A stretch of DNA of 64,000 nt, taken from a virus. The translations under genes were made by a program, and so were the position numbers. Positions 7,101-64,000 of this stretch are shown piece after piece. How positions within the stretch are numbered: position 1 is the stretch's first letter; each line of letters begins with the position of its first letter. The stretch is taken from positions 41,337 to 105,336 of the IMG/VR virus record IMGVR_UViG_3300025137_000020; one strand, given 5' to 3'. The notes beneath the pieces are model-generated. The model did not search any database, was not told the origin of the DNA, and saw only the letters and a list, made by a program, of their open reading frames with translations.

Positions 7101-9305
7101 ATCTCCGGCTGAAACGTCATCACCAATTGTATATGAGTCAACCCAAAAAGCATCATTGCCAGTTTGGGCATGTTCTAAATATCTATAAGCGACTGTCAAT
7201 GTCTGTGTTGTAGTCACTGCTTTAGTGCATTTTAGTTGGCCTACACCATAATTAGTAGGTGTCTGGCCGTTCACTAAAATAAAGCTATCGGCTAAATCTC
7301 CATCAACACTACCTACAATAGTATCAATTCCAATGACATCGGTCTTTACTAAATTGGCGGTTTGACCTCTAGTATATGTAGATGTACTAATCACTTCGCC
7401 TGATATAAATGTTTTTGTTTTTGTTTTTAGTGTAGCAGTTCGCTTAAAAGAATATGTCGCCTTGGCGGCGGCAGCATTTGCAAATCCGTGGCCAGACGCT
7501 AGAGTTAAAGTACAATCTTGGGCTGAGTTCGTAATACTTACATTACTCACCTGTTTGAAGGCGCCAGATGCATTAACTACAATATAATCATTTGGGTTAT
7601 CTTGATAGTACTGACTTCCGCTCAATTGTGGTAATGCGATAGTTGCAACACTGCCAGAGACCGCTACAGTCCTGGTAGTTGAAGTTTCTCTAATAGGAAT
7701 TTTAATTGTATTGAGCGAACTGGAGGGTACTTGAGTTAGACTCTTTACCACATTTTGTGGAAGTGGGAATACTAAATCACCTGAACTGATATCATTTAGC
7801 TGAAATCCGCCAGCAAATCCATTAGTACCTGTAAATGTACTAGTACCATCTGCGGCAGTACCAAAAATAAATTTAGCCGCAGATAATTTATTAGCGCCCA
7901 TCGTCACAGCGCTAATATAAAGTCTAAATCTTCGTCCAGTATATTCTATACCTCGAATGGTACATGTTCCTAGAGATGACCCGCCAGATGTTGCTGATAA
8001 CGTATACGATGTAGGTGAAGAGGCATTAGCATCGCATTTGGGTAAATTAGCAATACTAGTCAATTCAATATAGTTACCTTGTCTAGCTTGAATAAATTCA
8101 CTGGTGTGAACTTCAGTGTCTCGTGCTTTATCAACAATGATTTCTTGTTTCTTTATAATTTCAATCCGCTTACCTTTTACGTAGGCGGTAGAAGGTTCTA
8201 GAGCTGCAATAAATTTAGCGCCGTTACCTGCAGGAACCGCACCAGCAGCGTATTTTCCTCGATTGAAACCGGTGTTCAAATGTTCTCTTAATTCAAGTTG
8301 GAACGGCTGAAGAGCGTAGTCTCCACTTTCTTCGAATGTTCTTGTGGCTAAAGTTTCTCCTAATTTATTGTACTTTGTTTGTACTGGCTGAGTAACTTGA
8401 GCCTGATTTAATGTTATGACATCAATTGCATTGGCTGTCGATGTTCCAACTACATGAGCGGGTGTACTAATTATTTGTGTGTCATCTGTAATTAAACAGA
8501 GAGTCAGGCTCATCGTAAATCTATCTGCGCCAGGAGCACTTTGATTTGTAGTTCCCGCTGCATTATCATAAAGAGTATTATCATTGACCGCACTAACTGT
8601 GCTCTCATTGACTAAAAAGCCTACTTTACCATCTAAGAGAGTGTACGGGGTTGATTGATCAACATCTATATATTTGGTTTGCGCGTTTGCAATAACAAAA
8701 TATCCTTTAATGAAATATACGCCCTTATTATTATGCAGCTTTATTGCGAACCCACTTTTTACTATATCAGTACCATCACCAAGTACACCATTCACTGACA
8801 AAAATATTTCACCACTATCTTGTAACTGAGTAGATATTTTAATGTCAGTTTGGATGCGAGTCCCGTTCTCAAAAGCTGTGGTTTGAGAATCATAACGGAC
8901 ATAGAATCTATACTTATCGCCAGATACTAATTCGTAATCCATAATGGTGGCAGAGACTGTTGCTGAGGCTAAGGCAGTCCCAACATAAATTCTTTTACCA
9001 ATAAGCGGTCTATTTGCATTTGCTGCTGCGCTTGCACCACCACTAGATAATGTGATATCTACCCATTGTACTTTATTATCAACATCAATTTCACCTTCAA
9101 GAACTCTCGTTCCGTCTACAAATATGTGCTGACCAAACTTATCAATCTGATCTTGAATAGCAGACTGCATTTGATTCAATTCACGAACTTGGACTGACCG
9201 CCCCGCCTGAAATAGAACCTTTAAGTAGTTTTTGTCTGAATTGCCACTGGCCGTATAATCGTCGAAATACGGTTGGCCTGCAGTTGATGATGTGTCGATT
9301 GCCAT
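4107..9305 (-). CDS. VrlC-like / DUF4815 virion structural protein (1732 aa)
   Basis: N-terminal PYFDDY..KNYLKVLFQAGRSVQVRELNQMQ; LEYYSSLSLLE; DPLAQTF; position downstream of gp8. Confidence 0.85.
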   Translation of the reverse strand: MAIDTSSTAGQPYFDDYTASGNSDKNYLKVLFQAGRSVQVRELNQMQSAIQDQIDKFGQHIFVDGTRVLEGEIDVDNKVQWVDITLSSGGASAAANANRPLIGKRIYVGTALASATVSATIMDYELVSGDKYRFYVRYDSQTTAFENGTRIQTDIKISTQLQDSGEIFLSVNGVLGDGTDIVKSGFAIKLHNNKGVYFIKGYFVIANAQTKYIDVDQSTPYTLLDGKVGFLVNESTVSAVNDNTLYDNAAGTTNQSAPGADRFTMSLTLCLITDDTQIISTPAHVVGTSTANAIDVITLNQAQVTQPVQTKYNKLGETLATRTFEESGDYALQPFQLELREHLNTGFNRGKYAAGAVPAGNGAKFIAALEPSTAYVKGKRIEIIKKQEIIVDKARDTEVHTSEFIQARQGNYIELTSIANLPKCDANASSPTSYTLSATSGGSSLGTCTIRGIEYTGRRFRLYISAVTMGANKLSAAKFIFGTAADGTSTFTGTNGFAGGFQLNDISSGDLVFPLPQNVVKSLTQVPSSSLNTIKIPIRETSTTRTVAVSGSVATIALPQLSGSQYYQDNPNDYIVVNASGAFKQVSNVSITNSAQDCTLTLASGHGFANAAAAKATYSFKRTATLKTKTKTFISGEVISTSTYTRGQTANLVKTDVIGIDTIVGSVDGDLADSFILVNGQTPTNYGVGQLKCTKAVTTTQTLTVAYRYLEHAQTGNDAFWVDSYTIGDDVSAGDATNVQRAEVSHFSGRHLLDMIDFRGSNVSIDPNGIIEFGNIEFFIPRHDRIVLKTNGEFEYLEGDTEANGPQSIPDNAMLLYDLDVPAYTNSVQGIEIGYHDNRRYTMKDIGKIDRRVKNLEYYSSLSLLEQITKDQKVLDDDTIIDRFKHGIMVDEFKGHAIGMPSDPGYRISIEPEKGILRPSFRTTNIGITLGTPGAGNKADDKLKTTGGIVDDPSPIGQEDIIRLNSSSIGTLIDQPFASVAISVNPFDVASWVGEVKLSPDNDEWRDTNRRPEVIISQDGNSEAILNLVNEQLASEGTRWNDWNTTWSGVTETRSLGWNNMTSTANIMRQHGGTTHTRNCRCGHRNTLEVPTFNGGTVTAVNQRRAQIELEARTTSTIQTRDGMQQFAELETIRESLGDKVVDVSFVPFIRSRRVYFRATGLKPNTTIYPFFDGVDVSGYVKSTAFVEFRDDSTRQDHTNDSPGDISADTLVSNDAGTLTGYLVIPNNDALRFRTGEREVIFSDDSNNDLTAATTYAKATYAARGLLQTVEEQVLTTRRVAIDERRVESNRTLTTTQVAATGRIRHVDPLAQTFLIDGDLYPAGITLKDIDLYFAKSHSKLPVSIHLVPTENGIPTQKMIPFSRVERYPNAQAAVDAGASATLAAAAAVGTKTIAEVDPTNASLATKFVFDSPVHLKGGSEYAIVVMSNSPDWTLWHSEVGGIDVGAGSQRITKNPYTGVSLKSANASTWTPDQNKDFKMKINYMQFFESGSSVTKTSTTCGYSSFTKIFPAGTTSGNPVKCDAINLNAGNSVELPGTSISYSLTVAGETYSISPGRVLNLHSTVDLYANRLALTATLKSNNKYVTPQLDVQRLSLLSIKNNIDNDLTNETRETHGNADARYITKPVVLDNSADRLDVYMDIKRPLPQCNVDVYARFDDITGSSAYVKLESATIPVSGNFREVHFRTSTSDDINLFTKFQIKIILRSVASDGTTADSAIVPEIKNFRAIATQ

Positions 9306-9316
9306 AGTTTATTCCT

Positions 9317-11149
9317 TTAAAATTGTATAATAAGTCTTACTTCTTCTGTTTGCTGTGCGTTTCTTCTAATTGGTGCTCTGTTATCAACAAATAAAACATC
9401 GCCAGTATCTTGATTATATTCTCCTTGCTTTAAATTAACGTATCCAATCGCAGCACTGCCCTGTTGAACACCATTACTGTTAAATATTTTAACATTACCA
9501 CTACTATTAAATGGTTTTTGGTTAATAGATTTATGGCTATTCTGGTGAAAGTAAATTCTGTATCCGCCGGATTGTGTGCCAGCCGTATTAGGGTCTCCGT
9601 CTATTGGGTCTAGTGCTTCGTACTCAGATACCTTATCAAGCCATGCAAGAGGATTTGTCGCAGTGCCGGCATCCATTTCTATATATGCTCCAGTTCCTAA
9701 GTTTTGAATTTCATTAGGAACTGAGTTCGCGAATACCTGAAGATACTGTAAACAGTTCATCGCTTTCTCCGCGGGAAGATTTTCTTCGTCTGGATATGTC
9801 CCGCCAGGACTATTCAAATCATCTTCAGCTGTTCTCATATCTTTTAGCGAGTCTCTAACTAATGACACCTGTCTAAAGTCAATGCCTACTAATGATTCTG
9901 CAATATATTGAGGTGGACTATTGTTAACACTTTCTGCAGATTCATTACCCACAGTTCCAACAAAGTCAGAAGAAATACCACAATAATAACTTGGAAGGTC
10001 CAATAGCGGACTCCAGCCAAAACCATTTTCGGGTGCAATTAAAGGTTGAATATCAGCTTCAACGAAGGTCGCTGAACTAATAAATAGATTCGCGGAATCA
10101 ATTACTTCAATACTGACTTCTCTCATCCCGCCGCCGTTTACTACAGATTGTGTCCAATTAGGTCCACTACTAGTACCTCCAGTTGCGGAAGATGCTGGGA
10201 CAGATGCTATTCCATATCCGAGCGCTTTAGCTTTGTCTAAATCCCATACAACTTTGGTAACTTGGCCACTCGCATTAGTTTCTAAAGATATATCAATTGC
10301 GGCCGTCTCATTACCTTGAAGTATTGTTCCATCTAATCTCCGACCTGTAAGTCGTGCCGGCAACGCATTACCATTAGCAACACTTCGATTTTCAGGATAC
10401 CCAGTGCCTGGAGTCTCAGCACCAATTCTAAATCCATATACTAAACCAGCTGTAGCTCTAGCGGCTCTCTGACGACCATTTTCATACGCGCCACCTTCGC
10501 CATGTCCTGCAATATTATTTAATCTACCGTCTACTAGTGCGTTTGGAGTAACATTTACAAATGTCTTTGAATCGCCAAACAGATTTGATAAACTTTCTTT
10601 ATTATAATAGTCAATATATCCCCAAATATAACCATCAGTATTTTGTACTACACCAAATGGAAAGTTTTCTCCAGCTGGCATTGTAGGAATTCGTGCGGTT
10701 GTGGCTAATCCACCATTGTTGCCTAAACAAACATAGAGCTTTGAGTGACCTAAACTATCTGTATACATTACATAACAAGGAAGTTCTTGTAAATTAATAT
10801 CGGCATCAAAACACCCGGTATTTGTAGGATCATATACTTTATACATGGCCCCAACTTTAAATTCAATTTGTGGTACAAGTCTAAGAACATCAGTAGCATC
10901 GATCTTCATAAGAGTCATAAGATTCTTTTTGATGTCTGCCTTTTCTAAAACATTACCTTCTGGCAACGGAACAATAAATCCGGTTTCTGCCTCGGTTCGG
11001 CCGTTATCATCTCTGTCCCAAGGGTCCGTTTTACCGATACCTACATAATAATTGACCGCTGTTGAAGTCGGTGATTGACTAGAACTAACATCTTCAATAA
11101 ACCTCTCAATGTTACTTTTTCTAAAATCGTCTGTGATAATTGCTGCCAT
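9317..11149 (-). CDS. gp8: Baseplate wedge subunit gp8
   Basis: MAAIITDDFR, YYVGIGKTDPW, DGYIWGY and C-terminal GDVLFVDNRAPIRRNAQQTEEVRLIIQF; synteny gp6-gp7-gp8. Confidence 0.9.
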   Translation of the reverse strand: MAAIITDDFRKSNIERFIEDVSSSQSPTSTAVNYYVGIGKTDPWDRDDNGRTEAETGFIVPLPEGNVLEKADIKKNLMTLMKIDATDVLRLVPQIEFKVGAMYKVYDPTNTGCFDADINLQELPCYVMYTDSLGHSKLYVCLGNNGGLATTARIPTMPAGENFPFGVVQNTDGYIWGYIDYYNKESLSNLFGDSKTFVNVTPNALVDGRLNNIAGHGEGGAYENGRQRAARATAGLVYGFRIGAETPGTGYPENRSVANGNALPARLTGRRLDGTILQGNETAAIDISLETNASGQVTKVVWDLDKAKALGYGIASVPASSATGGTSSGPNWTQSVVNGGGMREVSIEVIDSANLFISSATFVEADIQPLIAPENGFGWSPLLDLPSYYCGISSDFVGTVGNESAESVNNSPPQYIAESLVGIDFRQVSLVRDSLKDMRTAEDDLNSPGGTYPDEENLPAEKAMNCLQYLQVFANSVPNEIQNLGTGAYIEMDAGTATNPLAWLDKVSEYEALDPIDGDPNTAGTQSGGYRIYFHQNSHKSINQKPFNSSGNVKIFNSNGVQQGSAAIGYVNLKQGEYNQDTGDVLFVDNRAPIRRNAQQTEEVRLIIQF

Positions 11150-53862: not shown

Positions 53863-53891
53863 ATTATACATGATTCTTGCTAAGTTGTAAA
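53863..53891 (-). promoter_or_regulatory. Promoter gtcTTTACA-17-TATAAT
   Basis: Upstream of uvsX. Confidence 0.8.
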
Positions 53892-53896
53892 GACAT

Positions 53897-55090
53897 TTAT
53901 GCAAGGAATTGTTCTAAACTGTTCTCCTCAAGCTCGTGAGAAGTATTCGTATTGTTTTGTCTTATGAATTTAGTTTTCATAGTATCAAGCTTACCATCAA
54001 GATAGTCTTTAACTGACTGAGCCATATCTTGCGCAGTAGTAACTGGTACATTTTGACAAATCATATTGATGTTCTTCTTACCGCCAACTAATTGAAAGTC
54101 TTTCGGCATCCTCATAATTGACAGCGCTTCACGAATAGAAATGAATCTATCTTCGTCGGGGTGTATTAATGAAGTAGCAAAGTGTCCAACGAATGCTGAG
54201 GTATGACCTTTACCAAACTCAATTCCTCGTTTCATAATGTTTCCGCCTGCTTTATACTTAGCCTCAATTCTTAAACACTTAGCAGCTTCTTTATCAAATC
54301 CATTCGCAGTCATCCATTCAGCGACTTGCGGGTAAGGAATCTTTTTATCTTCAATATAGTTTAGGGTGTTAGTTGACTTCTCGATCTTAGCAAAGAACTC
54401 TTTATGGGTAATCCCGCCTTCGATTTCTTCAAGTATGTATCGATACCAAGGATCGTCACTCGGCTTCTTGTCATTAACCAATGCATTCATTGGGTCGTCA
54501 TCAGATACAAAAGCATTGCGAATTGTTTCTTCGATTGGCTCTTTCTCTTTACTAAAGTACGGCATATAAGGAACGTTCTCCGCGTTCCAAAAGAAGTAGA
54601 AAGAACGATTACGAACTTGACCTAATCCGTGAAGAGTCGACTTAGTCTTATAAAGAGTCATCGTATAACCATTATCGTCTGCAACCTTTCTGAGCTTCTC
54701 GACAACTGGCTTACCCATATTACCATAAAGACCAGGAGCATTCTCACCCCAAAAGACTTTTGGTTTAACCTCACTTAATACGTACTTAGCTGATTCGATC
54801 ATCCAATCATTCGCAGCGTTGTCAGCATTAGCATTTACATTTAACATTGAAAGACCAGCACATGGGCAAACTGAATTGACTACATCAACTTGGCCTCCGT
54901 GACTACCACCCTCATCCAATACATGATAAGGAACTTCGTTCTTGTAATGATTCAATAGCTGAGAATCATTCGCGCCGAAGGCTTTGTACGACATAATATA
55001 CTTTGGTCTTTTACCAAAGGCGTTTTGCATCGCGATTGTTTCTCCACCAATCAGTGGAATGATACTTGCATATGTATAATTATTTTCCAT
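53897..55090 (-). CDS. C5 cytosine methyltransferase-fold protein with an atypical motif I
   Basis: Motif IV PCAGLS, motif VI ENAPGL, motif VIII Q.R.RSF, HP.E.RFISIRE...P.DF, QNV.V; motif I is IIPLIGG rather than FxGxGG. Confidence 0.85.
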   Translation of the reverse strand: MENNYTYASIIPLIGGETIAMQNAFGKRPKYIMSYKAFGANDSQLLNHYKNEVPYHVLDEGGSHGGQVDVVNSVCPCAGLSMLNVNANADNAANDWMIESAKYVLSEVKPKVFWGENAPGLYGNMGKPVVEKLRKVADDNGYTMTLYKTKSTLHGLGQVRNRSFYFFWNAENVPYMPYFSKEKEPIEETIRNAFVSDDDPMNALVNDKKPSDDPWYRYILEEIEGGITHKEFFAKIEKSTNTLNYIEDKKIPYPQVAEWMTANGFDKEAAKCLRIEAKYKAGGNIMKRGIEFGKGHTSAFVGHFATSLIHPDEDRFISIREALSIMRMPKDFQLVGGKKNINMICQNVPVTTAQDMAQSVKDYLDGKLDTMKTKFIRQNNTNTSHELEENSLEQFLA

Positions 55091-55532
55091 TAGTTACTCT
55101 TTCTCTCAATTCACTGGTTGAAAAGGAATGCCGTCTTTTATTATAGTGGATATGGCATAACCCTTTCCCCGTGTGTTCTTTGTTTTTATATTCTTCTCCA
55201 CAGATTCTAATATCGGGGTTGATAGTTTGAATCATATCTTCTAAATCTTTTTCGCTTTCAAATGGTATTACTTCATCGACATACTGACAAGACGCAACCT
55301 GAACATATCTTTCAAAGATAGACTGAATAGGTTTGTTCTTTGTGTCGGGCCGATCCAGAGTTGGGTCTGTTAAAAGTCCTATAATTAAATAGTCACACAA
55401 TTGCTTTGACTCCTGTAGCATTACTACATGGCCTGCGTGCATTAAGTCAAATGACGATGCGGTGAAGCCAACTACTACTTCTTCAATTGGCTTATCTAGC
55501 TTCCGCGCTAGTTCTTTCTTATCAATAAACAT
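55080..55532 (-). CDS. Cytidylyltransferase-like nucleotidyltransferase (TagD/RfaE-II fold)
   Basis: FDLMHAGH (HxGH), KPIQSIFER, YVDEVIP, R.HSFSTSELR. Confidence 0.9.
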   Translation of the reverse strand: MFIDKKELARKLDKPIEEVVVGFTASSFDLMHAGHVVMLQESKQLCDYLIIGLLTDPTLDRPDTKNKPIQSIFERYVQVASCQYVDEVIPFESEKDLEDMIQTINPDIRICGEEYKNKEHTGKGLCHIHYNKRRHSFSTSELRERVTNGK

Positions 55533-56553
55533 CCTGTATTAATCCTATAATAAATTCTTTGTCGTGATGGTATTTTATCACTCGAGTCAATTCACACCGT
55601 ACTAAAATATTTATATCTTTAGCGCGGAGCTTATTGTAAGTGCATAATGTTCGTCTTGAAAGGTCAATCAATTCGGGCGTAACATTATTAATATAAAGGC
55701 TTGCAATAAACTTAGCGATGTCTAATTCAAGACAACCAAAGACATCGGGTATGGGGTCGATTAGAGTTAATCGATCATCGTCAAATAGTAGATTAGTTAA
55801 TCCAAAGTCTCCGTGAGCGAATGATTCTTCTGGCCATTCGATAAGTTTTAGTTCGTCAAATACTAACGCCCATAATACGTCTTGCTCTAGATCACACTCA
55901 TTGATATGTTTGCGGATTCTTTCTATGTACGTGGTAAAGTTATTTTGCTCTTGGTACTTTACCCTTTTGAATCGGTCTAAATTCTCTTGAATCATCGCCA
56001 ATGCACGATGAGGATGTCTAAAGAAGTACGTGTTGTCGTGGTTAATATATTCCATAGTCATAGTTTCACCTACGACTCTTTCTACATTAGGAACACTAGC
56101 GCCCGTCTTCTTTACTACTTCGAACCATTCATTCACCTCATGCGACCTAGCATCTGTCTTATGAACCAATCGGCCATCAGTATAAATGTCAGAGCCGGAA
56201 AGCCCGCCTTCTAGATTTCGTATATCAGTATCAATAAAATCTTCTGGTGATATACCTTTATCGTCTACATAGTATGCAGCTAATGGCTTATCAAACGAAA
56301 GACTGTTGTAATTTATATTGTGGTCAGATAGCCAACTCCTTATTTCTTCTCCATACTTCGCTTCAGCTTCTTCGCGAGTTTTGCAAGAGATAGAACCGCG
56401 GGCGGTGAAGATATCAATCTGCCAACCGTCTTTATAAAGTTTGTTTATCTTTTCGATTAGCGGTATATTTGGTTTAGCATCTTTAAATTTCCTGTTTACG
56501 GGAAATGCTAGTGTGTCGTCGAAATCTAATACTATACGTTTGTGATGTTTCAT
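55522..56553 (-). CDS. HAD phosphatase fused to an APH/choline-kinase-like phosphotransferase
   Basis: N-terminal DFDDTL, FTARG, KP.A.YYVDDK; C-terminal GGLSG, MEYI, HGDFGLTN, LIDP, DIAK. Confidence 0.85.
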   Translation of the reverse strand: MKHHKRIVLDFDDTLAFPVNRKFKDAKPNIPLIEKINKLYKDGWQIDIFTARGSISCKTREEAEAKYGEEIRSWLSDHNINYNSLSFDKPLAAYYVDDKGISPEDFIDTDIRNLEGGLSGSDIYTDGRLVHKTDARSHEVNEWFEVVKKTGASVPNVERVVGETMTMEYINHDNTYFFRHPHRALAMIQENLDRFKRVKYQEQNNFTTYIERIRKHINECDLEQDVLWALVFDELKLIEWPEESFAHGDFGLTNLLFDDDRLTLIDPIPDVFGCLELDIAKFIASLYINNVTPELIDLSRRTLCTYNKLRAKDINILVRCELTRVIKYHHDKEFIIGLIQDVY

Positions 56554-57953
56554 GCGAAAAATGATTCCAAAGAAGATGTTTCTTCTTCAGACTTTTGTTG
56601 TTTATTGTTTACTAAAATGTAATTTTCTCGTTTAAGATAAGAGCCGGGTGCAGTCATTATAACCTCACCCCTCTCACGTAAATCTTTTGCGGATGGAAAG
56701 AATTTATTTATGGCTTCTGCAGCATTGACTTTATTCTCTCTTTTGCCATGCATCAATATAGTCTCTAAGTACTTAGGCGCTAGATTGTCAATGTCGTTGA
56801 ACTTATAAATTAGTTCTCTGCAAGCTTCTCTCCTATCTACCCATTCATTTTTATTATGCCAAAGTCTATCGAGTTCTGCAGCCAAAGCTTCTTCTTGGTT
56901 AGCTTCTGCAGTAAGTGCGCAGTCATAATCAACCCATCTCTTACCTTCTGGCGAATAAGCGTTCTCTGCAAATTGTTTATTGAGTACGGGTAGAGTCAAT
57001 AGAAATGATTCGATCTGAGTGTATTCCATTCGTGTACCATATTCTCTTTCGTCTGTTAGTCGATAGCCACACCAAGAAGCAAACGATGCACCAAGAGTTT
57101 TCATACCCCAATCGTATGGATAAGATTCGTATGCATTTACGGTGACTTCTTCAATAGGCAACTTGCAATTGTGTTTGATATTACCGTCTTTATCAAATCG
57201 ATGTATACGAACAAAGTCTCTGAATGGTGGAATATATGGTCCAGGCCATCTGTGTAATTCTTTTTTGTCGTCAAAGGCTACTGAAGAAATCGATCTCTCG
57301 CAACCTACTAAAGATAATTGCCAATCGGCCATGTACTTACTTGAACGACAGATTAGTGCAGGGTCTTTTAATGGAGACATACGACCAATGTATAAAAAAT
57401 GTTTAATTGGTCCGTCAGTACGATATTTGTTATACGCGTTTGGTTCAATCCAAATAGGGTTTTCTATAATCCTATCTTTTAAACCTTCGTCGAAGTCTGT
57501 GTATGCTCTAGATGAAAGTCCGTCTTTAGATTGAAGAACTGCCACATCGGCATAAGAAAATAGTTCGCATGCCTGGGGAACTGAGTTGATAGTATTAACA
57601 GAGATGCCATGGTCGTGCATTACAACGATGGGGTCGTTTATCTTTTCAATAAATCGTCTGTATCTATCACAATAGTCTGTGTGTTTACGAATAGGAGCTG
57701 AGTGACAGATAAGTATATCACACTTATTAGCTACATCGATAATTCCTACTGAGGCATCTTGTTCTGAAGCTGTTACTTCTAGAACTTCACCTTTGAATTT
57801 GTTATCTTTAGCTCGGCCATATCGACCACCATTGATAAAATCAAATACAACGGAGTCATGGCCATTATCATATAACCACTTCTCAAAGAATAAAGCACCA
57901 CGAGTAACTCCACACCCATCGATACCTTTTCCAAAAACAAAACCTATTCTCAT
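56550..57953 (-). CDS. T4 alpha-glucosyltransferase-like DNA glycosyltransferase (GT-B)
   Basis: N-terminus MRIGFVFGKGIDGCGVTR mirrors T4 Agt (G(L/I)(E/D)GCGVT); HDH, YIGR...KDP, EYTQIE. Confidence 0.8.
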   Translation of the reverse strand: MRIGFVFGKGIDGCGVTRGALFFEKWLYDNGHDSVVFDFINGGRYGRAKDNKFKGEVLEVTASEQDASVGIIDVANKCDILICHSAPIRKHTDYCDRYRRFIEKINDPIVVMHDHGISVNTINSVPQACELFSYADVAVLQSKDGLSSRAYTDFDEGLKDRIIENPIWIEPNAYNKYRTDGPIKHFLYIGRMSPLKDPALICRSSKYMADWQLSLVGCERSISSVAFDDKKELHRWPGPYIPPFRDFVRIHRFDKDGNIKHNCKLPIEEVTVNAYESYPYDWGMKTLGASFASWCGYRLTDEREYGTRMEYTQIESFLLTLPVLNKQFAENAYSPEGKRWVDYDCALTAEANQEEALAAELDRLWHNKNEWVDRREACRELIYKFNDIDNLAPKYLETILMHGKRENKVNAAEAINKFFPSAKDLRERGEVIMTAPGSYLKRENYILVNNKQQKSEEETSSLESFFA

Positions 57954-57979
57954 ACTATTCTTAATAATTTATAAACACT

Positions 57980-58008
57980 ATTATACCATGATTTTAACAC
58001 AGTGTAAA
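57980..58008 (-). promoter_or_regulatory. Promoter gtcTTTACA-17-TATAAT
   Basis: Heads the four-gene GT/kinase/NTase/MTase operon. Confidence 0.8.
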
Positions 58009-58016
58009 GACAAAAG

Positions 58017-58190
58017 TTACATTGTCTTCGCGCAATACTTTAGCATAGTTAGTAGAATAACTACTCCACCTGCATACATGAGCATTGCTTGCCAGAAGTC
58101 TTTATTCTTCCAAAAAGTCATTGAACCATACTTAGGAGAACATACACAACATTCACTCTTATTTCGTTTTTTACTTTTTAACTTCGGCAT
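58017..58190 (-). CDS. Small basic membrane protein (57 aa)
   Basis: MPKLKSKKRNKSECCVC...TM; below the track cutoff. Confidence 0.45.
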   Translation of the reverse strand: MPKLKSKKRNKSECCVCSPKYGSMTFWKNKDFWQAMLMYAGGVVILLTMLKYCAKTM

Positions 58191-58332
58191 ATTCTCTTAT
58201 TCTTATTCCGTGCTCATTAATATAATCTTTAGTTGGCACTCTTAGTTTTTTCTTACCACTTTTGACATCAGCTTCGAACTGAGCAGTTTTTTCTTCAAGT
58301 ATTTCTTGAATTCGTTTTTTAAGCGATGTCAT
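58171..58332 (-). CDS. Small hypothetical protein (53 aa)
   Basis: MTSLKKRIQEILEEK...; fills the gap. Confidence 0.45.
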   Translation of the reverse strand: MTSLKKRIQEILEEKTAQFEADVKSGKKKLRVPTKDYINEHGIRIREYAEVKK

Positions 58333-58945
58333 CTACTTCTGACCCGTGGTTTTTGTCTCTTAAATTATAGTGGTCATCAGCCATATAAGGGTTTTCATCC
58401 TCTAGTTCTTTATGGTGATGTAACGTTTGTGGCTCACCTAAATGCTCCGTTATAGTATCTTTATTCTGTCCGTTAGTATTCCATTGCCAATCGTGAAACA
58501 TATTATATTCATCAACTGCTATACCAACGTATTTCATTTGAGCTTTGCTGAAGTTGCACCCAGATTTCCAGTTTTTTCCGTGTATTTCAATGTCTGGCAT
58601 GACTACTCTAGCAACACCAATTTGAATTAATCCTTTAAAGCAATCTTCGCAGGCGGGTAATCCGTGAACATAAACAGTTGCTCCTTTAAGTGATACACCA
58701 TGTTGAGTTGCATTGTAGATCATATTCATTTCGGCATGAACCATCAACTTTAACTTAGCTTGTCTGTCAATTAATAAGTCATCATCATCTACTACACCTT
58801 TAGGAAATCCATTGTAACCTGTAGCAATGATTCGCTTATCACTAACTGCGATAGCACCCACTTGGGTTGAAGGGTCTTTCGACCACGTAGCAACTTCTTT
58901 TGCTATTTTTAAAAATCTGTAGTCCCACTTATTCATTTGTTTCAT
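58319..58945 (-). CDS. cd: dCMP deaminase
   Basis: WSKDPSTQVGA, GYNGFP, HAEMN, ACEDC zinc ligands. Confidence 0.93.
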   Translation of the reverse strand: MKQMNKWDYRFLKIAKEVATWSKDPSTQVGAIAVSDKRIIATGYNGFPKGVVDDDDLLIDRQAKLKLMVHAEMNMIYNATQHGVSLKGATVYVHGLPACEDCFKGLIQIGVARVVMPDIEIHGKNWKSGCNFSKAQMKYVGIAVDEYNMFHDWQWNTNGQNKDTITEHLGEPQTLHHHKELEDENPYMADDHYNLRDKNHGSEVDDIA

Positions 58946-59738
58946 CTGCTTCGATAGCTATTGCTTCTATTTCTTGTTGTTTAAGATCGTAAATGGTAAC
59001 AGGTATTTTCTGTCTTTCGGTTCCAACATGTATCATGTCATGCGATGGCTTATTATATTCTCCTGTTATGCAATTCAGTTTTATATTTTCTATAAACTTA
59101 TAATGTCTATCGTATACGTGTAACGAACCTACATTCCAATAGATTTCGCCTGGTTCGTATACGACATCTAAATCCAATAGAAGCTTGTCTCGTACGTGAG
59201 TCTGCCAAGCGAGGTCATTGTTGTAACCGAACACTGCATCGTTAGATCGCATATATACCGAGGTGATAAGTTTGCCATCACGAATGAAGTACTGAACATT
59301 GTTAGTACAAATAAAGTCAGACATATCATCAATCTTATAGTCTTGCCAAATAGATGGACGCGTGTAAATCATATTAGCACGACGAGAGTCTGGTGAAGTA
59401 TTTAGTTCGTGTAAAACTTCTTTATATTGGTTCCAATTGTCTTGAGAGTATGCAAGGTAGCCATAGTTAGAATTGATTACTCCCATGTTGCTCGCGGTAG
59501 CTTTCCATATTGCTGGGCATTCGCCTGGTATATCTTGAACCATTAATGATTGTGATTCATACCATTCAAGCTCGCGTTTGATGTAATCATAATTTGGTTT
59601 TCGTATAATGTATGGCTCATCAGCAACGAAACACGCATTAATAATCTCAATAGTGCTTGAGCCAGTTTTGTCGGCAACAAACTCTTTGTCTCTTAGTTTG
59701 TCTATAAACTGTTTTGTTATTTCTTTTACCTTTTGCAT
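58929..59738 (-). CDS. gp42: dCMP hydroxymethylase (T4 gp42-like thymidylate-synthase homologue)
   Basis: RELEWY, NSNYG, SRRA.MIYTRPS, DFICTN.VQY.IRD, MRSND.VFGYNND (Asp at the dCMP-specificity position), WNVGSLHVY.RH. Confidence 0.88.
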   Translation of the reverse strand: MQKVKEITKQFIDKLRDKEFVADKTGSSTIEIINACFVADEPYIIRKPNYDYIKRELEWYESQSLMVQDIPGECPAIWKATASNMGVINSNYGYLAYSQDNWNQYKEVLHELNTSPDSRRANMIYTRPSIWQDYKIDDMSDFICTNNVQYFIRDGKLITSVYMRSNDAVFGYNNDLAWQTHVRDKLLLDLDVVYEPGEIYWNVGSLHVYDRHYKFIENIKLNCITGEYNKPSHDMIHVGTERQKIPVTIYDLKQQEIEAIAIEADETNE

Positions 59739-59749
59739 AATTTAAATTC

Positions 59750-60301
59750 TTATTTTACAAGTTCTATATTACCAGAAATAATGGCTCTGTCAATACCAGA
59801 ATTGCTCGGCAATTGACAATGGAGTACATCTGAAGGCCACATGATAAACTTACCTTGCTTTGCGTCGACCACCCATTCGATGTCGCAATTTGGGTAAGAA
59901 TAATATCTAGTTCCCTGGTGGTTTTTTTCATCTATGTCTACATACCAAGCGAATGACCATCTGCTCATCATGGGCCCTTGGTCCCCGTGGTTGTGCGGAG
60001 CGTGCCATACGTTGTCTTTAGTTATTTGAGTCCACAGAGCCAAAAAATTCATATCAGATGCTCCTCTATCAGCAATAAACTCCGCGAAATTATGATTCAT
60101 ATATTTACGAAGCAAATTGAGCCATCCGTCAAAGAACACGGAAGGCTCTTCTTGGCCAAACTCGGTTCGGATGCCGTCTGGATTTGTGTTTAAACTTTCG
60201 CCAGCTTCATTTAGTGTTGAGTAATAGTCTTCAGGCGTTATGTCAGTGTCCCAAACATAGAACTCAATTGGTGGGAATGGTGTATACTTATTTGCTCCCA
60301 T
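59750..60301 (-). CDS. 2OG-Fe(II) oxygenase-like protein
   Basis: W....HAPHNH, WPS.V.H..P, R.IISGNI; start MGANK overlaps the upstream stop. Confidence 0.7.
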   Translation of the reverse strand: MGANKYTPFPPIEFYVWDTDITPEDYYSTLNEAGESLNTNPDGIRTEFGQEEPSVFFDGWLNLLRKYMNHNFAEFIADRGASDMNFLALWTQITKDNVWHAPHNHGDQGPMMSRWSFAWYVDIDEKNHQGTRYYSYPNCDIEWVVDAKQGKFIMWPSDVLHCQLPSNSGIDRAIISGNIELVK

Positions 60302-60656
60302 CGATATGCTTATTCGTTGAGGGTTCGCGGTTGAGAAAATCTTTAGAACCATCTTGGCCTTCAATGCCGTTGCGGCAATAGGCTGCAATAAAAGAGCTGT
60401 AATTGATTAGGTCTTTAGCCGAGTCTTCGATTGATTCGAAGTTTTGCTGGTACGACTCATCAGACTCCATTGCTTCAATGACTGAATACATACGAAGAAC
60501 TTTTGCGTATACAATATCTAATATCGTAAGAACACCACGTGGATAGTAGTCAGCTTGCTTAATACGCGAGTTAGGATTCTGGTAATCGTTTGATTTTTTA
60601 ATTTGTAGTTCGGCACACTCTTTAAGTACCTTTAGTGATTCTTTATCAATTGTCAT
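60288..60656 (-). CDS. Nucleotide-modification-associated all-alpha (MazG-like, DUF1599/Nmad1-type) protein
   Basis: KKSNDY, K..R, ESIEDS..DLINY. Confidence 0.7.
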   Translation of the reverse strand: MTIDKESLKVLKECAELQIKKSNDYQNPNSRIKQADYYPRGVLTILDIVYAKVLRMYSVIEAMESDESYQQNFESIEDSAKDLINYSSFIAAYCRNGIEGQDGSKDFLNREPSTNKHIDGSK

Positions 60657-60662
60657 AGTTAT

Positions 60663-60691
60663 ACTATACCTTATTTTTAGGCTTTTGTAAA
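60663..60691 (-). promoter_or_regulatory. Promoter TTTACA-17-TATAGT
   Basis: Upstream of the Nmad/oxygenase/gp42/cd genes. Confidence 0.7.
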
Positions 60692-61026
60692 TAATAAAAT
60701 TCAAGTAAAAACATCATACAGCATATTGCGTGAGCTGCATGGTGTACACCGGTTTCGGGGTCGAGCTTTTCATCTTTCATAAGAGCCCACATATGCCTTT
60801 GAGCAGCTGCAAAATAACGATCATCAATATTGTCAAGCTTTTTCCAATTGTGTCGATCGTACTTCTTTGCGCCGATGGTTAATACTTTTACCACGTCATC
60901 TAACGCGTTGGGTGGTATTAAAGAGTAGTCAGGCTTATCGTCATCAAATTTGATTCCGCCGTTTGCTGAATTCTTCTTCGCAAACTTAGCTTTCCTTTCC
61001 CACTCTTTTAGTTTTTCTTCTGTCAT
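60664..61026 (-). CDS. dATP/dGTP diphosphohydrolase-domain protein (DUF5664)
   Basis: G.KFD..KP.YSLIP, V..VLT.GA.KY...NW, AA.RH, D.ETG.HH.AHA.CC.MFL. Confidence 0.85.
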   Translation of the reverse strand: MTEEKLKEWERKAKFAKKNSANGGIKFDDDKPDYSLIPPNALDDVVKVLTIGAKKYDRHNWKKLDNIDDRYFAAAQRHMWALMKDEKLDPETGVHHAAHAICCMMFLLEFYYLQKPKNKV

Positions 61027-61193
61027 TACTTTCTTTTTTCTTTATTGTTCTTAATGGCTTTATCAATTTTAGGAGTTACCATTACTCCAACGGTTTCGTT
61101 AAATACTAATGGGCCGCTTGAACGTCCTAGTAGTTTTCGCTTAGAGGGATTTGCAGCTCTAATGTCTGCACCGGGTTTTAATTTTTTACTCAT
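61026..61193 (-). CDS. Small basic protein (55 aa)
   Basis: MSKKLKPGADIRAANP...; TAATG coupling. Confidence 0.5.
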   Translation of the reverse strand: MSKKLKPGADIRAANPSKRKLLGRSSGPLVFNETVGVMVTPKIDKAIKNNKEKRK

Positions 61194-61196
61194 ATC

Positions 61197-61430
61197 TTAT
61201 ATAAAATTTCTAAATTCTTTTAATTCTTTTACTATCTCTATAAAAAGTTCAATATCACTTTTAGTATTAATGATGGTTACTTTGTGCTGTAATAATACCT
61301 CGTTTTGTGTTGTTACAGTTTCATTTAAATTGGTTACTACTTCTTTAAGCTTTTTAGCCTCATAGTCTAATATTCCAATCCAGCCAAAAGTAAGTATTAC
61401 TGCGATGGTGATTATAATCTTTTGTCTCAT
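61197..61430 (-). CDS. Small TM + coiled-coil protein
   Basis: MRQKIIITIAVILTFGWIG. Confidence 0.55.
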   Translation of the reverse strand: MRQKIIITIAVILTFGWIGILDYEAKKLKEVVTNLNETVTTQNEVLLQHKVTIINTKSDIELFIEIVKELKEFRNFI

Positions 61431-61432
61431 AA

Positions 61433-61972
61433 TTAAAATGTTCGTTGTATATCCAATACATTGAATACATATTGTACGCACTTACATTGAGCTATTACAT
61501 CCTCAATAGCATTGTGCGCTTGGAAGTCGATTTTAGATTTGATATCGTCTGGTATTAATCCTGTTACGGTACGAGAGTCTTTCTCATTCCAAAACTTCCA
61601 TGGCTGTTGCATATCATAGTGACGATATAAATGACCAAGCATTGGAAAGTCGAATGATGGCCCTTGGCACCAAATCTTACTTACTCCGTCGAACCACTCA
61701 TTCAAAGCCAACAAACCATCTTTGACATCTACTCGATCATGCTCAGAGAAAGTATCATTACGAACTTCTTCTGATTGAGTACCCCACCACTTAAGAGTAC
61801 CGTCATCAATTATACGGCCTTTCTCTACCTGACCAGATGTATCCAACTTTAAATAAAGTTTATCAACTGGCTCGTCAGTATTAAAAGGATTGAACTTTGC
61901 CGCTCCTATAGTTAGAACAACAGCATCTTGGGTAGTACCCAGAGTTTCTAAATCAACCATTCCTTGCATCAT
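61433..61972 (-). CDS. DEDD 3'-5' exonuclease (DexA-like)
   Basis: MVDLETLG, W.QG..FD, PW.FW...DSRT, HNAIED. Confidence 0.88.
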   Translation of the reverse strand: MMQGMVDLETLGTTQDAVVLTIGAAKFNPFNTDEPVDKLYLKLDTSGQVEKGRIIDDGTLKWWGTQSEEVRNDTFSEHDRVDVKDGLLALNEWFDGVSKIWCQGPSFDFPMLGHLYRHYDMQQPWKFWNEKDSRTVTGLIPDDIKSKIDFQAHNAIEDVIAQCKCVQYVFNVLDIQRTF

Positions 61973-62013
61973 AATATATTACCTACACATTCTTTAATTT
62001 TGTTCATATATAT

Positions 62014-62042
62014 AGTATACTATATTTTGGCACAAATGTAAA
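62014..62042 (-). promoter_or_regulatory. Promoter gtcTTTACA-17-TATACT
   Basis: Upstream of the exonuclease. Confidence 0.75.
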
Positions 62043-62045
62043 GAC

Positions 62046-62699
62046 TTATTTTTCGATTTTCTTCTTAATTATCTCTTTACCGGCAGGTCCTGTCCAATGC
62101 ATTATCTTCTTATTTGGATTGTCCTGTCCTCTAGCTACTAGAACTCTTAACCACTGATACTCCATTGGCATCTCAACTAAGTTTTTTAATTGATGTGGTT
62201 GAACATGAACTAAATTGTGTAATACCTCTTGGTCACCTCTTAACCAACCGTTGTTGCACCATTCAGTCCAAACTTTTAAAATGTCTGGTGTGTCTTTTAC
62301 TACTACAACACCAGTTGCGTGCCATTTTTCATTAGCCACCTCTTTTCTTCTACACGGGTCATCTGTAATACCCATGTTAGTACCATCAACATAATCAAAT
62401 ATATCACTAATGTCTGCGAGTACTTCACAATCGACGTCTATCCAACATTTGTATTCGTATGGTGCGTCGATAAGAGTTTGAGGTTTATGAAACCACGAGC
62501 ATTTGTGATGCTTAGGATATTTAATAAAGTGGTCAGCTCTTTCTTCAGCCCATTCAGACCAGCCGTTATCCATACCAAAATCACAAATAACGACATCAGT
62601 ATTATTATGTTTCCATACATTTTCTAACCACCATGGTAGCATCCACTGATGATTAGAATCGACACCAGTTATAAAGCATTGTTTTTTCTTAGAAGACAT
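62046..62699 (-). CDS. GT-A glycosyltransferase (GT8-like)
   Basis: DFGM, W..KP, WIDVD (DxD), TGVV, GDQEVL, HWTG; start MSSKKK. Confidence 0.8.
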   Translation of the reverse strand: MSSKKKQCFITGVDSNHQWMLPWWLENVWKHNNTDVVICDFGMDNGWSEWAEERADHFIKYPKHHKCSWFHKPQTLIDAPYEYKCWIDVDCEVLADISDIFDYVDGTNMGITDDPCRRKEVANEKWHATGVVVVKDTPDILKVWTEWCNNGWLRGDQEVLHNLVHVQPHQLKNLVEMPMEYQWLRVLVARGQDNPNKKIMHWTGPAGKEIIKKKIEK

Positions 62700-62706
62700 A
62701 TAACGA

Positions 62707-62997
62707 TTATTCAGTTTCGTTATAAAATGGAAATACCATTTGTCTATCGTCTTCAGGCTGTACCTCGCTGACGCTTTCTTCTTGGGTATTAAATCGCTGT
62801 AGCAGAGCGAGCATTTCTTTTTTGTGTGATACCTCTTGTTTAAAAAGAGCCGACTCTTCATCCATCGTAGGAAGAATCATTTGCTTCTCGTTAATGTGCA
62901 ACCAATATTCAAGGCTGTCTATTTTATTTTGAACCCAGTCACTCATTCGGTGCCGGTTGCTGTAACTATGTGTTCCGTTCATATTTTTTATCTCCAA
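62707..62997 (-). CDS. Hypothetical protein
   Basis: ORF packed in operon. Confidence 0.5.
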   Translation of the reverse strand: MEIKNMNGTHSYSNRHRMSDWVQNKIDSLEYWLHINEKQMILPTMDEESALFKQEVSHKKEMLALLQRFNTQEESVSEVQPEDDRQMVFPFYNETE

Positions 62998-63485
62998 TAA
63001 TTTTTTGGATAGTATTGTTGGTGGGTGTGCCTATGACACTTTTGTAAAGCCATAGCTTCTAGGAAAGTGGGAACTATAGCACAATCGACGTGGCTATATC
63101 CTAACTCTCGTGCTGCATATAGACGATTCGACCCTCCCCATACTACAAGTAATTTTTCATCTTGTTTGTCATCCGCCATCCAAAATGGGAGTTCATTTAT
63201 AAGGTGGCCGTACTTTGCTTTCTGCCCTTTTAACTCAGCCTTTGTACATTTGACTGTCAACAATGGATTATACAATCCGTTCTTAGCTATATCATCTTTG
63301 ATCGGGCCATAAAACTCTTTGCCCAAATGTGAAATAGCTTTTGGAACAGATGCCCACAACTCGTTTACGTCATGTTGCTCAATCAGATACTTTTTATTGT
63401 GTGTTTTTGATTCGAACTTTGTGGTATTTTGCCAATACCCTTGTTTATGGTAATTGCTTTTTAATAGTCTCATTTTATAGTTCAC
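62988..63485 (-). CDS. ParB/Srx-like domain protein
   Basis: DI.KNGL.NP, GGSNRL.AARELG. Confidence 0.65.
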   Translation of the reverse strand: MNYKMRLLKSNYHKQGYWQNTTKFESKTHNKKYLIEQHDVNELWASVPKAISHLGKEFYGPIKDDIAKNGLYNPLLTVKCTKAELKGQKAKYGHLINELPFWMADDKQDEKLLVVWGGSNRLYAARELGYSHVDCAIVPTFLEAMALQKCHRHTHQQYYPKNYWR

Positions 63486-64000
63486 TGCTTAATACATATT
63501 CTAAAGCCCTTTGCGCTTCTTTTTCAATTGGTCTATTCTTATACCATCCACCCGTCTCTAAATCTATTTGTCTGCATAGAATAGTAATATCGGTTGCTGA
63601 TATAGGATATTTATACTTGATCGCAGAGCCTGCTATAGAAATCATTATCTGAAACATTTTGTGATACCATCCCGCTTCAGATATAGTACGATACTCGTCT
63701 ACTAATCGTTTATGTACGAACTTACAATCGTGGTATGAAGACCAGGTGTAGTCGTCGTTAGTAAGACTATCTTTTCTATGTTGAAGAATTGCTCTTTGCA
63801 TTTCGACAGGAAGTTTAGATAAGAATGTACCACTATTATCTACATACTCGTGCCGATCCATTAGCTCTTTAGGATTTAGTTCTTTACCTTTATTGGCGAA
63901 GCAAAAGTTAAATGCATTAGGATACACGGCTGGTATATAATACATACGAGATAAGTCTTTAGTCTGTGGGTCACCAATAGAATTGAACTCTTTATTTAGT
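63475..64000 (-). CDS. C-terminal part of a primase/prim-pol-like protein (5' end outside the window)
   Basis: Frame is open to 64000: ..GDPQTKDLSRMYYIPA; helical C-terminal domain GWYHKM...WY.NRP..EA.RA. Confidence 0.6.
   Translation of the reverse strand, partial: LNKEFNSIGDPQTKDLSRMYYIPAVYPNAFNFCFANKGKELNPKELMDRHEYVDNSGTFLSKLPVEMQRAILQHRKDSLTNDDYTWSSYHDCKFVHKRLVDEYRTISEAGWYHKMFQIMISIAGSAIKYKYPISATDITILCRQIDLETGGWYKNRPIEKEAQRALEYVLSSEL

Follow-up and report, generated by a model that had tools for sequence, protein, structure and literature searches.

The window analysed here is the last 64 kb of the 105-kb IMG/VR virus record IMGVR_UViG_3300025137_000020 (estimated to be 59% complete; window and record end at the same point), and it carries what is likely a DNA-hypermodification locus of an uncultured marine T4-like phage. 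Genes that would provide 5-hydroxymethylcytosine (hmC) stand next to a four-gene operon encoding a glycosyltransferase (GT) of the T4 alpha-glucosyltransferase (AGT) family, a fusion of a HAD phosphatase with an APH-type kinase, an HxGH nucleotidyltransferase (NTase) and a C5-cytosine methyltransferase-fold enzyme (MT). We consider it quite probable that this operon glycosylates hmC with a nucleoside diphosphate (NDP)-sugar that the phage makes itself. That the sugar is a heptose is a more tentative suggestion, which we hold with less than even confidence. A first-pass annotation had read the region as a new pathway of hmC modification with its own activated donor. The functional reading holds up in context, given the gp42 signature, the AGT-family GT, the translational coupling of the donor genes to that GT and the constant linkage to gp42. 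The pathway is not new, however: the same architecture and enzyme set were published in 2023 (Pyle et al.), and the idea of an own donor is also realised in RB69-type phages.

We propose a mechanism in three steps. First, judged by homology, the dCMP deaminase, the gp42-type hydroxymethylase and one or two pyrophosphatases would shift the deoxycytidine (dC) pool to hydroxymethyl-dCMP and hydroxymethyl-dCTP before replication, and DNA would therefore be made with hmC. Second, domain logic and a published reconstitution suggest that the kinase half of the fusion phosphorylates the anomeric hydroxyl of a host sugar phosphate, most likely D-glycero-D-manno-heptose 7-phosphate. The HAD half would strip the distal phosphate, and the NTase, which resembles domain II of HldE, would turn the sugar 1-phosphate into an NDP-sugar. 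Third, the AGT-family GT-B enzyme would move the sugar onto the hydroxymethyl group of hmC in duplex DNA. A C-terminal SLExFF clamp-binding peptide probably keeps the enzyme at the replication fork, and the resulting base would be of the heptosyl-hmC type and not glucosyl-hmC. Taken as a whole, with hmC from gp42, a phage-made activated sugar and AGT-like transfer to DNA, this explanation is in our view a likely one.

Predicted hydroxymethylcytosine supply and the four-gene operon

Coordinates are positions in the window, and every gene of the module lies on the minus strand (Table 1). Conservation was followed in 80 IMG/VR loci, the best 80 of 180 matches, onto which the proteins of the window were mapped with tblastn. 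Linkage was counted in the 40 loci with at least 4 kb of upstream flank and the 54 loci with at least 3.5 kb of downstream flank.

The thymidylate synthase (TS) homolog has its catalytic Cys within DFICTN, aligned to T4 C148, and Asp at the equivalents of both E. coli D169 and E. coli N177 (RSNDAVFGYNND). An Asp at the N177 position marks cytosine specificity, and 5-hydroxycytosine (5hoC) synthases carry D169N (Lee et al., PMC13326640). We therefore rejected a 5hoC synthase as the identity of this protein; because D169 is kept, it is best read as a hydroxymethylase. A match to gp42 was obtained in 58 related loci; 47 of them show the RSND..FGY.ND motif, and the match in the other 11 gave no motif. 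The dCMP deaminase adjoins gp42 in 53/82 loci. Two all-alpha proteins further upstream are candidates for editing the nucleotide pool. Homologs of the XP12-type gene adjoin a TS homolog in XP12-like phages and gp42 in Serratia phage Muldoon, and this type occurs in 33 related loci. A PF18909-type or an XP12-type homolog was found in 39 of the 40 loci with enough upstream flank, mostly just one of the two, and either could be a stand-in for the T4 gp56 dCTPase. Thus the hydroxymethylase, the deaminase and the two pyrophosphatase-type proteins that had been named upstream of the operon are all confirmed by family matches or homolog contexts.

The operon runs from the GT through the fusion and the NTase to the MT, with overlaps of 4 nt, 11 nt and 11 nt between successive genes. 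The promoter-like site ahead of it falls within the 63-nt gap 5' of the GT start and is the joint best in a 10.5-kb promoter scan. Promoter-like matches in that scan were not enriched overall (45 vs 36.7 +/- 6.4 in shuffled sequence). The promoter-like site and four overlapping genes described by the first-pass annotation are thus where it had put them, and family profiles and motifs bear out the identities that it had given to all four proteins. Downstream of the operon lie UvsX and a gp41-type helicase. A second 11/12 promoter-like site with the same hexamers (TTTACA-17-TATAAT) occurs at 53863-53891 on the minus strand, directly 5' of uvsX and just past the MT stop.

What kind of enzyme is the GT? 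It matches phrog_2888, alpha-glucosyltransferase, over its full length (2e-30). The match to Pfam AGT (PF11440, CAZy GT72) has an E-value of 2e-5 and 24.3 bits against a cut-off of 25, and covers the N-terminal 131 positions only. With a family profile built from 14 homologs, the sole PDB match is T4 AGT (1e-15), over the N-terminal domain only. Moreover, the nine best Foldseek matches of the AlphaFold2 (AF2) model are all T4 AGT (1xv5; 3e-16, TMt 0.79-0.81), compared with about 0.6 for GT4 enzymes. In sequence, the similarity to AGT is confined to the N-terminal (acceptor) domain, and the donor domain has diverged. By profile and model, then, the GT belongs to the AGT family.

The fusion joins two recognisable halves. 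The HAD half has the motif DFDDT (DxDxT) and matches TIGR01689 (1.6e-11), and the profile of the fusion matches the small HAD structures 9iqw (6e-15) and 1xpj (3e-14). 1xpj is the best structural match reported for RB69 gp51, the phosphatase of the phage UDP-arabinose route (PMC13326640). By homology the domain belongs with the AfhF/1xpj group, which serves phages in making UDP-arabinose. A literature search found no primary paper for PDB entries 9IQW and 9IQU and HY126. The kinase half has an invariant HGDFGxxN...D motif and a match to APH (1.3e-4), and in the AF2 model of the fusion (predicted local distance difference test, pLDDT, 88.6) this half matches the APH/choline-kinase fold. The profile also gives a weak match to methylthioribose kinase (2e-3), an anomeric sugar kinase. 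D10, D12, D97, D98, H247, D249, N254 and D266 are invariant among homologs of the fusion. We rejected the label 'phosphoheptose isomerase' that phrog_1238 gives to residues 2-109 and that also appears in many GenBank phage records; it looks like a propagated mis-annotation, because the domain has HAD motifs and HAD structural relatives.

The NTase matches phrog_7878 (1e-33), and its catalytic residues are invariant among homologs. Its best family is TIGR02199 (rfaE_dom_II, heptose-1-phosphate adenylyltransferase; 5e-22), followed by TagD (8e-16, 58.3 bits). SIS and SIS_2 isomerase families gave no match in the 105-kb record, itself 59% complete, and the sugar phosphate that serves as substrate is therefore presumably derived from the host.

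Table 1. Genes and sites of the predicted modification locus and its surroundings (window positions)
Feature	Position	Strand	Basis
C5-cytosine methyltransferase-fold enzyme (MT), 397 aa, ends SLEQFLA	53897-55090	-	PF00145 8.5e-15, 55.4 bits vs cut-off 22
HxGH (HAGH) nucleotidyltransferase (NTase), 150 aa, HldE-domain-II/TagD-like	55080-55532	-	PF01467 (CTP_transf_like) 1.5e-14
Bifunctional HAD phosphatase (residues 1-~110)/APH-type sugar kinase (residues ~120-343), 343 aa	55522-56553	-	profiles, motifs, AF2 model
AGT-family (T4 alpha-glucosyltransferase-like, GT-B) DNA glycosyltransferase (GT), 467 aa, ends SLESFFA	56550-57953	-	profile and fold
Sigma-70-type promoter-like site, TTTACA-17-TGxTATAAT (extended TG)	58008-57980	-	consensus match only, 11/12
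dCMP deaminase	58319-58945	-	PF00383 7.7e-20
gp42-type dCMP hydroxymethylase (TS superfamily)	58929-59738	-	4.7e-76 to T4 dCMP hydroxymethylase 1B49, ~57% identical
2-oxoglutarate (2OG)-Fe(II) oxygenase, accessory	59750-60388	-	phrog_81 9e-23; Pfam Oxy_3/Oxy_5 only below threshold
XP12-type all-alpha nucleotide pyrophosphohydrolase, candidate dCTPase	60288-60704	-	homolog contexts
PF18909 (dATP/dGTP diphosphohydrolase N-terminal) protein, second candidate pool-editing pyrophosphatase	60664-61026	-	PF18909 1.3e-33
Possible GT8/GT-A-like protein, lead only	62046-62861	-	language-model neighbours
Possible ParB_N-like protein, lead only	62988-63485	-	language-model neighbours

Comparison with known pathways and the identity of the sugar

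The enzyme set has a published counterpart in the subclass III cluster of contig 53 (Pyle, Lund, O'Toole, Saleh; 10.1101/2023.12.21.572611; Cell Rep 2024;43:114631), which encodes a HAD/APH enzyme, a cytidylyltransferase and a GT-B DNA glycosyltransferase. When reconstituted in E. coli, this trio turned 5hmC into 5-heptosyl- and di-heptosyl-methylcytosine, and none of the three enzymes was dispensable (10.1101/2023.12.21.572611). The same metagenome survey found GT-B enzymes associated with ThyS, with APH phosphotransferase and NTP-transferase genes among the annotated neighbours (10.1101/2023.12.21.572611). Like contig 53, the locus described here has a HAD/APH enzyme, a stand-alone NTase of cytidylyltransferase fold, a GT-B DNA GT and a C5-MT in one cluster; in contig 53 the acceptor is 5hmC and the donor is made by the phage from host metabolites, as would be the case here. 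They differ in how hmC arises, which in contig 53 is after replication, through a C5-MT and the TET-like 5mYOX, whereas here a gp42-type dCMP hydroxymethylase is encoded. Tet_JBP gave no match in the 105-kb record, a weak absence given that the record is 59% complete and that control genomes gave none either. They differ also in the transferase: GT53 is a GT4/BshA-like enzyme of 429 aa, whereas the GT here is AGT (GT72)-like, has 467 aa and ends in a clamp-binding-type tail. Judged by its genes, the locus thus departs from contig 53 in using gp42 instead of MT plus TET to obtain hmC, and an AGT-like instead of a BshA-like transferase.

The T4 hmC pathway (gp42, cd, gp56, AGT) provides the other half of the comparison. 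Both phages have gp42, a dCMP deaminase, a pyrophosphatase for the dC pool, an AGT-family transferase and probable clamp binding. However, T4 uses host UDP-glucose and has no donor-synthesis genes, it lacks a C5-MTase, and its dCTPase is gp56 whereas the candidates here are of the XP12 and PF18909 types. In the chemistry proposed for the donor, a sugar phosphate is phosphorylated at the anomeric position, a HAD enzyme takes off its distal phosphate and an HxGH relative of HldE domain II transfers the nucleotidyl group; the bacterial ADP-heptose pathway (GmhA, HldE, GmhB) follows the same logic. Unlike in that pathway, the kinase has an APH/choline-kinase rather than a PfkB/ribokinase fold, and its fusion partner is the phosphatase, not the NTase. 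Moreover, no GmhA is encoded here, and family scores are far under the equivalog cut-offs.

Could the same logic serve a different sugar? RB69, DLP3 and HY126 make their own UDP-arabinose for DNA glycosylation with an isomerase, AfhE and AfhF (Lee et al., NAR 2026, PMC13326640). By analogy with the Afh route of RB69/HY126-type phages, arabinose-5-phosphate from the host would be converted to the 1,5-bisphosphate, to the 1-phosphate and then to NDP-arabinose, or another sugar would be treated likewise. The locus shares with the Afh pathway a self-made NDP-sugar produced by a kinase, a HAD phosphatase and a nucleotidyltransferase, GT-B transferases that act on DNA and a cluster that adjoins a TS homolog. 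In homology, what the two have in common is the HAD domain alone, which is related to AfhF-type phosphatases from arabinosylating Acinetobacter and Escherichia phages as well as to 1xpj. Moreover, in vB_Psh_XG4, a related phage in culture, a gp42-like gene and an MT occur together with an AfhE-like NTP_transferase/APH fusion. However, AfhE joins the kinase of the Afh pathway to a MurU/RmlA-type NTase, with the HAD enzyme on its own, whereas the kinase-HAD fusion with a separate HxGH NTase is the architecture of contig 53, which makes heptose. The best family of the NTase likewise points to heptose. The Afh pathway also has a SIS arabinose-5-phosphate isomerase, of which none was found in the record, and its arabinosylation of 5hoC goes with a D169N TS homolog, whereas D169 is kept here. 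A pentose or another sugar in place of heptose thus seems unlikely to us, if worth keeping in mind.

Several observations weigh against the explanation that we favour. The base of this phage and of its clade is a prediction from gene content. An intact C5-MTase in the operon is hard to square with complete C5 substitution. The model of the GT is of moderate confidence (pLDDT 68.6). The likeness to contig 53 is drawn from the published domain description of its enzymes, and because GT53 is GT4/BshA-like while the GT here is AGT-like, the sugar could differ from that of contig 53. The linkage counts come from one clade and from that subset of best matches. The NTase scores 78.2 bits, far under the TIGR02199 equivalog cut-off of 181.5, and its closest solved structures are ethanolamine-phosphate and glycerol-3-phosphate cytidylyltransferases.

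These structural relatives, together with the choline-kinase/APH-like fold of the kinase, would suit a pathway in which the HxGH enzyme makes a cytidine diphosphate (CDP)-alcohol (CDP-glycerol, CDP-ribitol or CDP-choline/ethanolamine) and the phospho-alcohol is put on hmC through a phosphodiester. A CDP-polyol had been one of the donors suggested by the first-pass annotation. However, the transferase is clearly AGT-like, that is, a Leloir sugar transferase. A HAD phosphatase fused to the kinase fits a route from a bisphosphate to a 1-phosphate and would be superfluous for polyol phosphates, and the homologous architecture yielded heptose when it was reconstituted. We therefore regard a CDP-alcohol donor as very improbable and retain an NDP-sugar as the likely product of these genes.

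The related loci show that the heptose-type donor cassette, for which the one reconstitution so far started from a methyltransferase/TET metavirome contig, belongs to the regular equipment of a large uncultured marine T4-like clade. This clade makes hmC the T4 way, and the base in its DNA is probably one that has yet to be measured in a natural virion. A base of this kind would matter for restriction and CRISPR evasion, for sequencing bias in marine viromes and for the enzyme toolbox for hmC labelling. vB_Psh_XG4, which is cultured and has a related cluster, is a possible experimental handle on the chemistry.

Linkage in related phages and the case for DNA as the target

The fusion is common, with more than 200 homologs at 49% identity or above among metagenome proteins. 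All 40 loci with enough upstream sequence have gp42 along with it, and all 54 with enough downstream sequence have both the NTase and the MT. The order gp42, cassette, UvsX-gp41 is constant among the 80 loci, and structural genes never adjoin or intervene. The co-occurrence check that the first-pass annotation had called for thus came out in favour of gp42 as the partner of the cassette, and never of capsid genes. Since the loci form one clade, these counts mostly reflect stable inheritance and shared ancestry. The AGT-like GT occurs in 26 related loci. In two loci examined from other sub-clades (L024 and L056), a different GT-B enzyme of 419-425 aa takes its place. These two loci also have a conserved 305-aa open reading frame (ORF) without a Pfam family between the fusion and the NTase (L024 11031-11948; L056 11008-11925).

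Independent support comes from outside the clade. In an unrelated Agathobaculum siphovirus, the genes for the fusion, the NTase and a TS homolog are neighbours; a search seeded with this fusion for TET-linked relatives returned two partial loci only. The cultured marine Pseudoalteromonas phage vB_Psh_XG4 (PP712099, 100-6580; record unannotated) has a related cluster. Its genes include a gp42-like TS with the D/D signature, an AfhF-like HAD protein, the AfhE-like NTP_transferase+APH fusion and two GT-B genes, and its C5-MTase is 31% identical to the MT of the window. Finally, Bacillus phage G (JN638751) has an MT homolog in a donor-gene-like island at 219303-230140 of its record. There the C5-MTase gp301 lies near the AGT-like gp306 and gp313, the NTP_transferase gp309, the HAD hydrolase gp310 and an unknown 353-aa protein, and from its gene content this island looks like another donor-making DNA glycosylation island.

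Not every phage sugar gene acts on DNA. Other phages have virion glycosylation (PMC12619734), similar HAD, kinase and NTase genes occur in cyanophages that lack gp42, and the JGI label for homologs of the fusion is 'capsule biosynthesis phosphatase'. The sugar genes might accordingly serve virion-protein glycosylation or the remodelling of host surface polysaccharide, or the GT might use host UDP-glucose independently of its neighbours. We give this little credence. Within the 80 loci the cassette always lies among replication genes, between gp42 and UvsX/gp41, and never by structural genes. The GT and the donor genes overlap, and the GT of the published system needed both donor enzymes. Furthermore, the GT is an AGT-family enzyme with a polymerase-like clamp peptide.

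The peptide is shared by the first and the last protein of the operon. Both GT and MT end in SLExF[FL]A (codons 56550-56573 and 53897-53920, respectively), and among the 127 ORFs of the window these two alone have L[DE]x[FLM][FLMY] within the last 10 residues. The SLExF[FL] tail is conserved in homologs of the GT and of the MT, with E463, F465 and F466 of the GT invariant in 14 homologs. A complete relative of 170.7 kb has a DNA polymerase with the C-terminus SLEDFFGQV, and the T4 alpha-glucosyltransferase AGT, a transferase acting on hmC in DNA, binds gp45 (PMC13216743, confirming Sommer et al. 2004). The tails of GT and MT are therefore probably gp45 clamp-binding peptides, and both enzymes probably work on nascent DNA at the clamp; such a tail argues that the GT is a DNA enzyme. 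Family-B polymerase and gp45 families gave no match in the 105-kb record, which is a weak absence at 59% completeness and with the gp45 control also silent.

The methyltransferase and the surrounding genes

Why would a phage with C5-substituted cytosine keep a C5-MTase? Motifs I (PLIGG), IV (PC), VI (ENAP), VIII (QxRxR), IX and X (QNxPV) are kept in 43 unique homologs. Judged by this conservation and its linkage, the MT is an integral part of the module, although C5 should already be occupied in this genome. It may methylate residual cytosine left by incomplete substitution, or it may act on the modified cytosine. A bolder idea, which we think improbable, is that the MT is perhaps no cytosine methylator and acts on hmC or glycosyl-hmC in nascent DNA through C6 attack and exocyclic-methylene chemistry. 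If that were true, hypermodification enzymes would gain a new class, and heptosyl-hmC would not be the end point of the modification. In a milder version, GT and MT might ride the sliding clamp together as a replisome-coupled writer complex.

The MT has relatives in other settings. Cyanophage S-TIM54 (OP053362) encodes a 'ThyA' at 6126-6968 that has Asp at the E. coli N177 position (ARSNDMATGVPLD) and is for that reason probably dCMP-specific. An MT homolog with 32% identity (8998-10215) lies 2 kb from this gene. The recurrence of an MT-fold gene beside dC-specific TS homologs in several unrelated phages is a testable puzzle.

The remaining upstream genes are less firmly tied to the module. 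The 2OG oxygenase noted earlier is present, although it is not a conserved part of the module: it is limited to the three closest related loci, at 37% identity. We rejected a TET/JBP-like identity for it on the grounds of this distribution, its phrog_81 type and its sub-threshold Pfam matches. The labels 'GT-A enzyme' and 'ParB-like' given to two further genes survive as weak leads. Neither gene is conserved in the module, and neither 62046-62861 nor 62988-63485 has a match among the hidden Markov models of Pfam, PHROG or NCBIfam. For the former, the atlas neighbours include clusters with 10-13% of members carrying Nucleotid_trans or Glyco_transf_8, and the true start of the ORF is probably near residue 55. 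For the latter, the 30 atlas neighbours include 12 clusters with PF02195 in 12% of their members.

Near-identical DNA is present in marine and seawater metagenomes, with four runs from two studies containing at least half of the sampled words. There was no RNA dataset among the listed sequencing runs with matching DNA, and megablast of the 9.6-kb region against deposited phages gave no match. By UvsX, the closest deposited relative is Phage C48C1 (OQ984149; 69%). In the same polymerase-to-UvsX position (6295-10041), it has a DNA methyltransferase, a nucleotide-sugar epimerase and a UDP-glucose dehydrogenase. Genes that modify DNA and sugars thus seem to gather preferentially in the slot between polymerase and UvsX.

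Two other genes of the window recur in related loci. An Rv2179c-like 3'-5' exonuclease is encoded at 61433-61972 (1.3e-34); in another sub-clade, the MT is followed by a distant relative of it with about 25% identity. The ORF at 63475-64000, which runs off the end of window and record, is the C-terminal part of a primase-like gene (phrog_9765) that is kept upstream of gp42 in 19 related loci.

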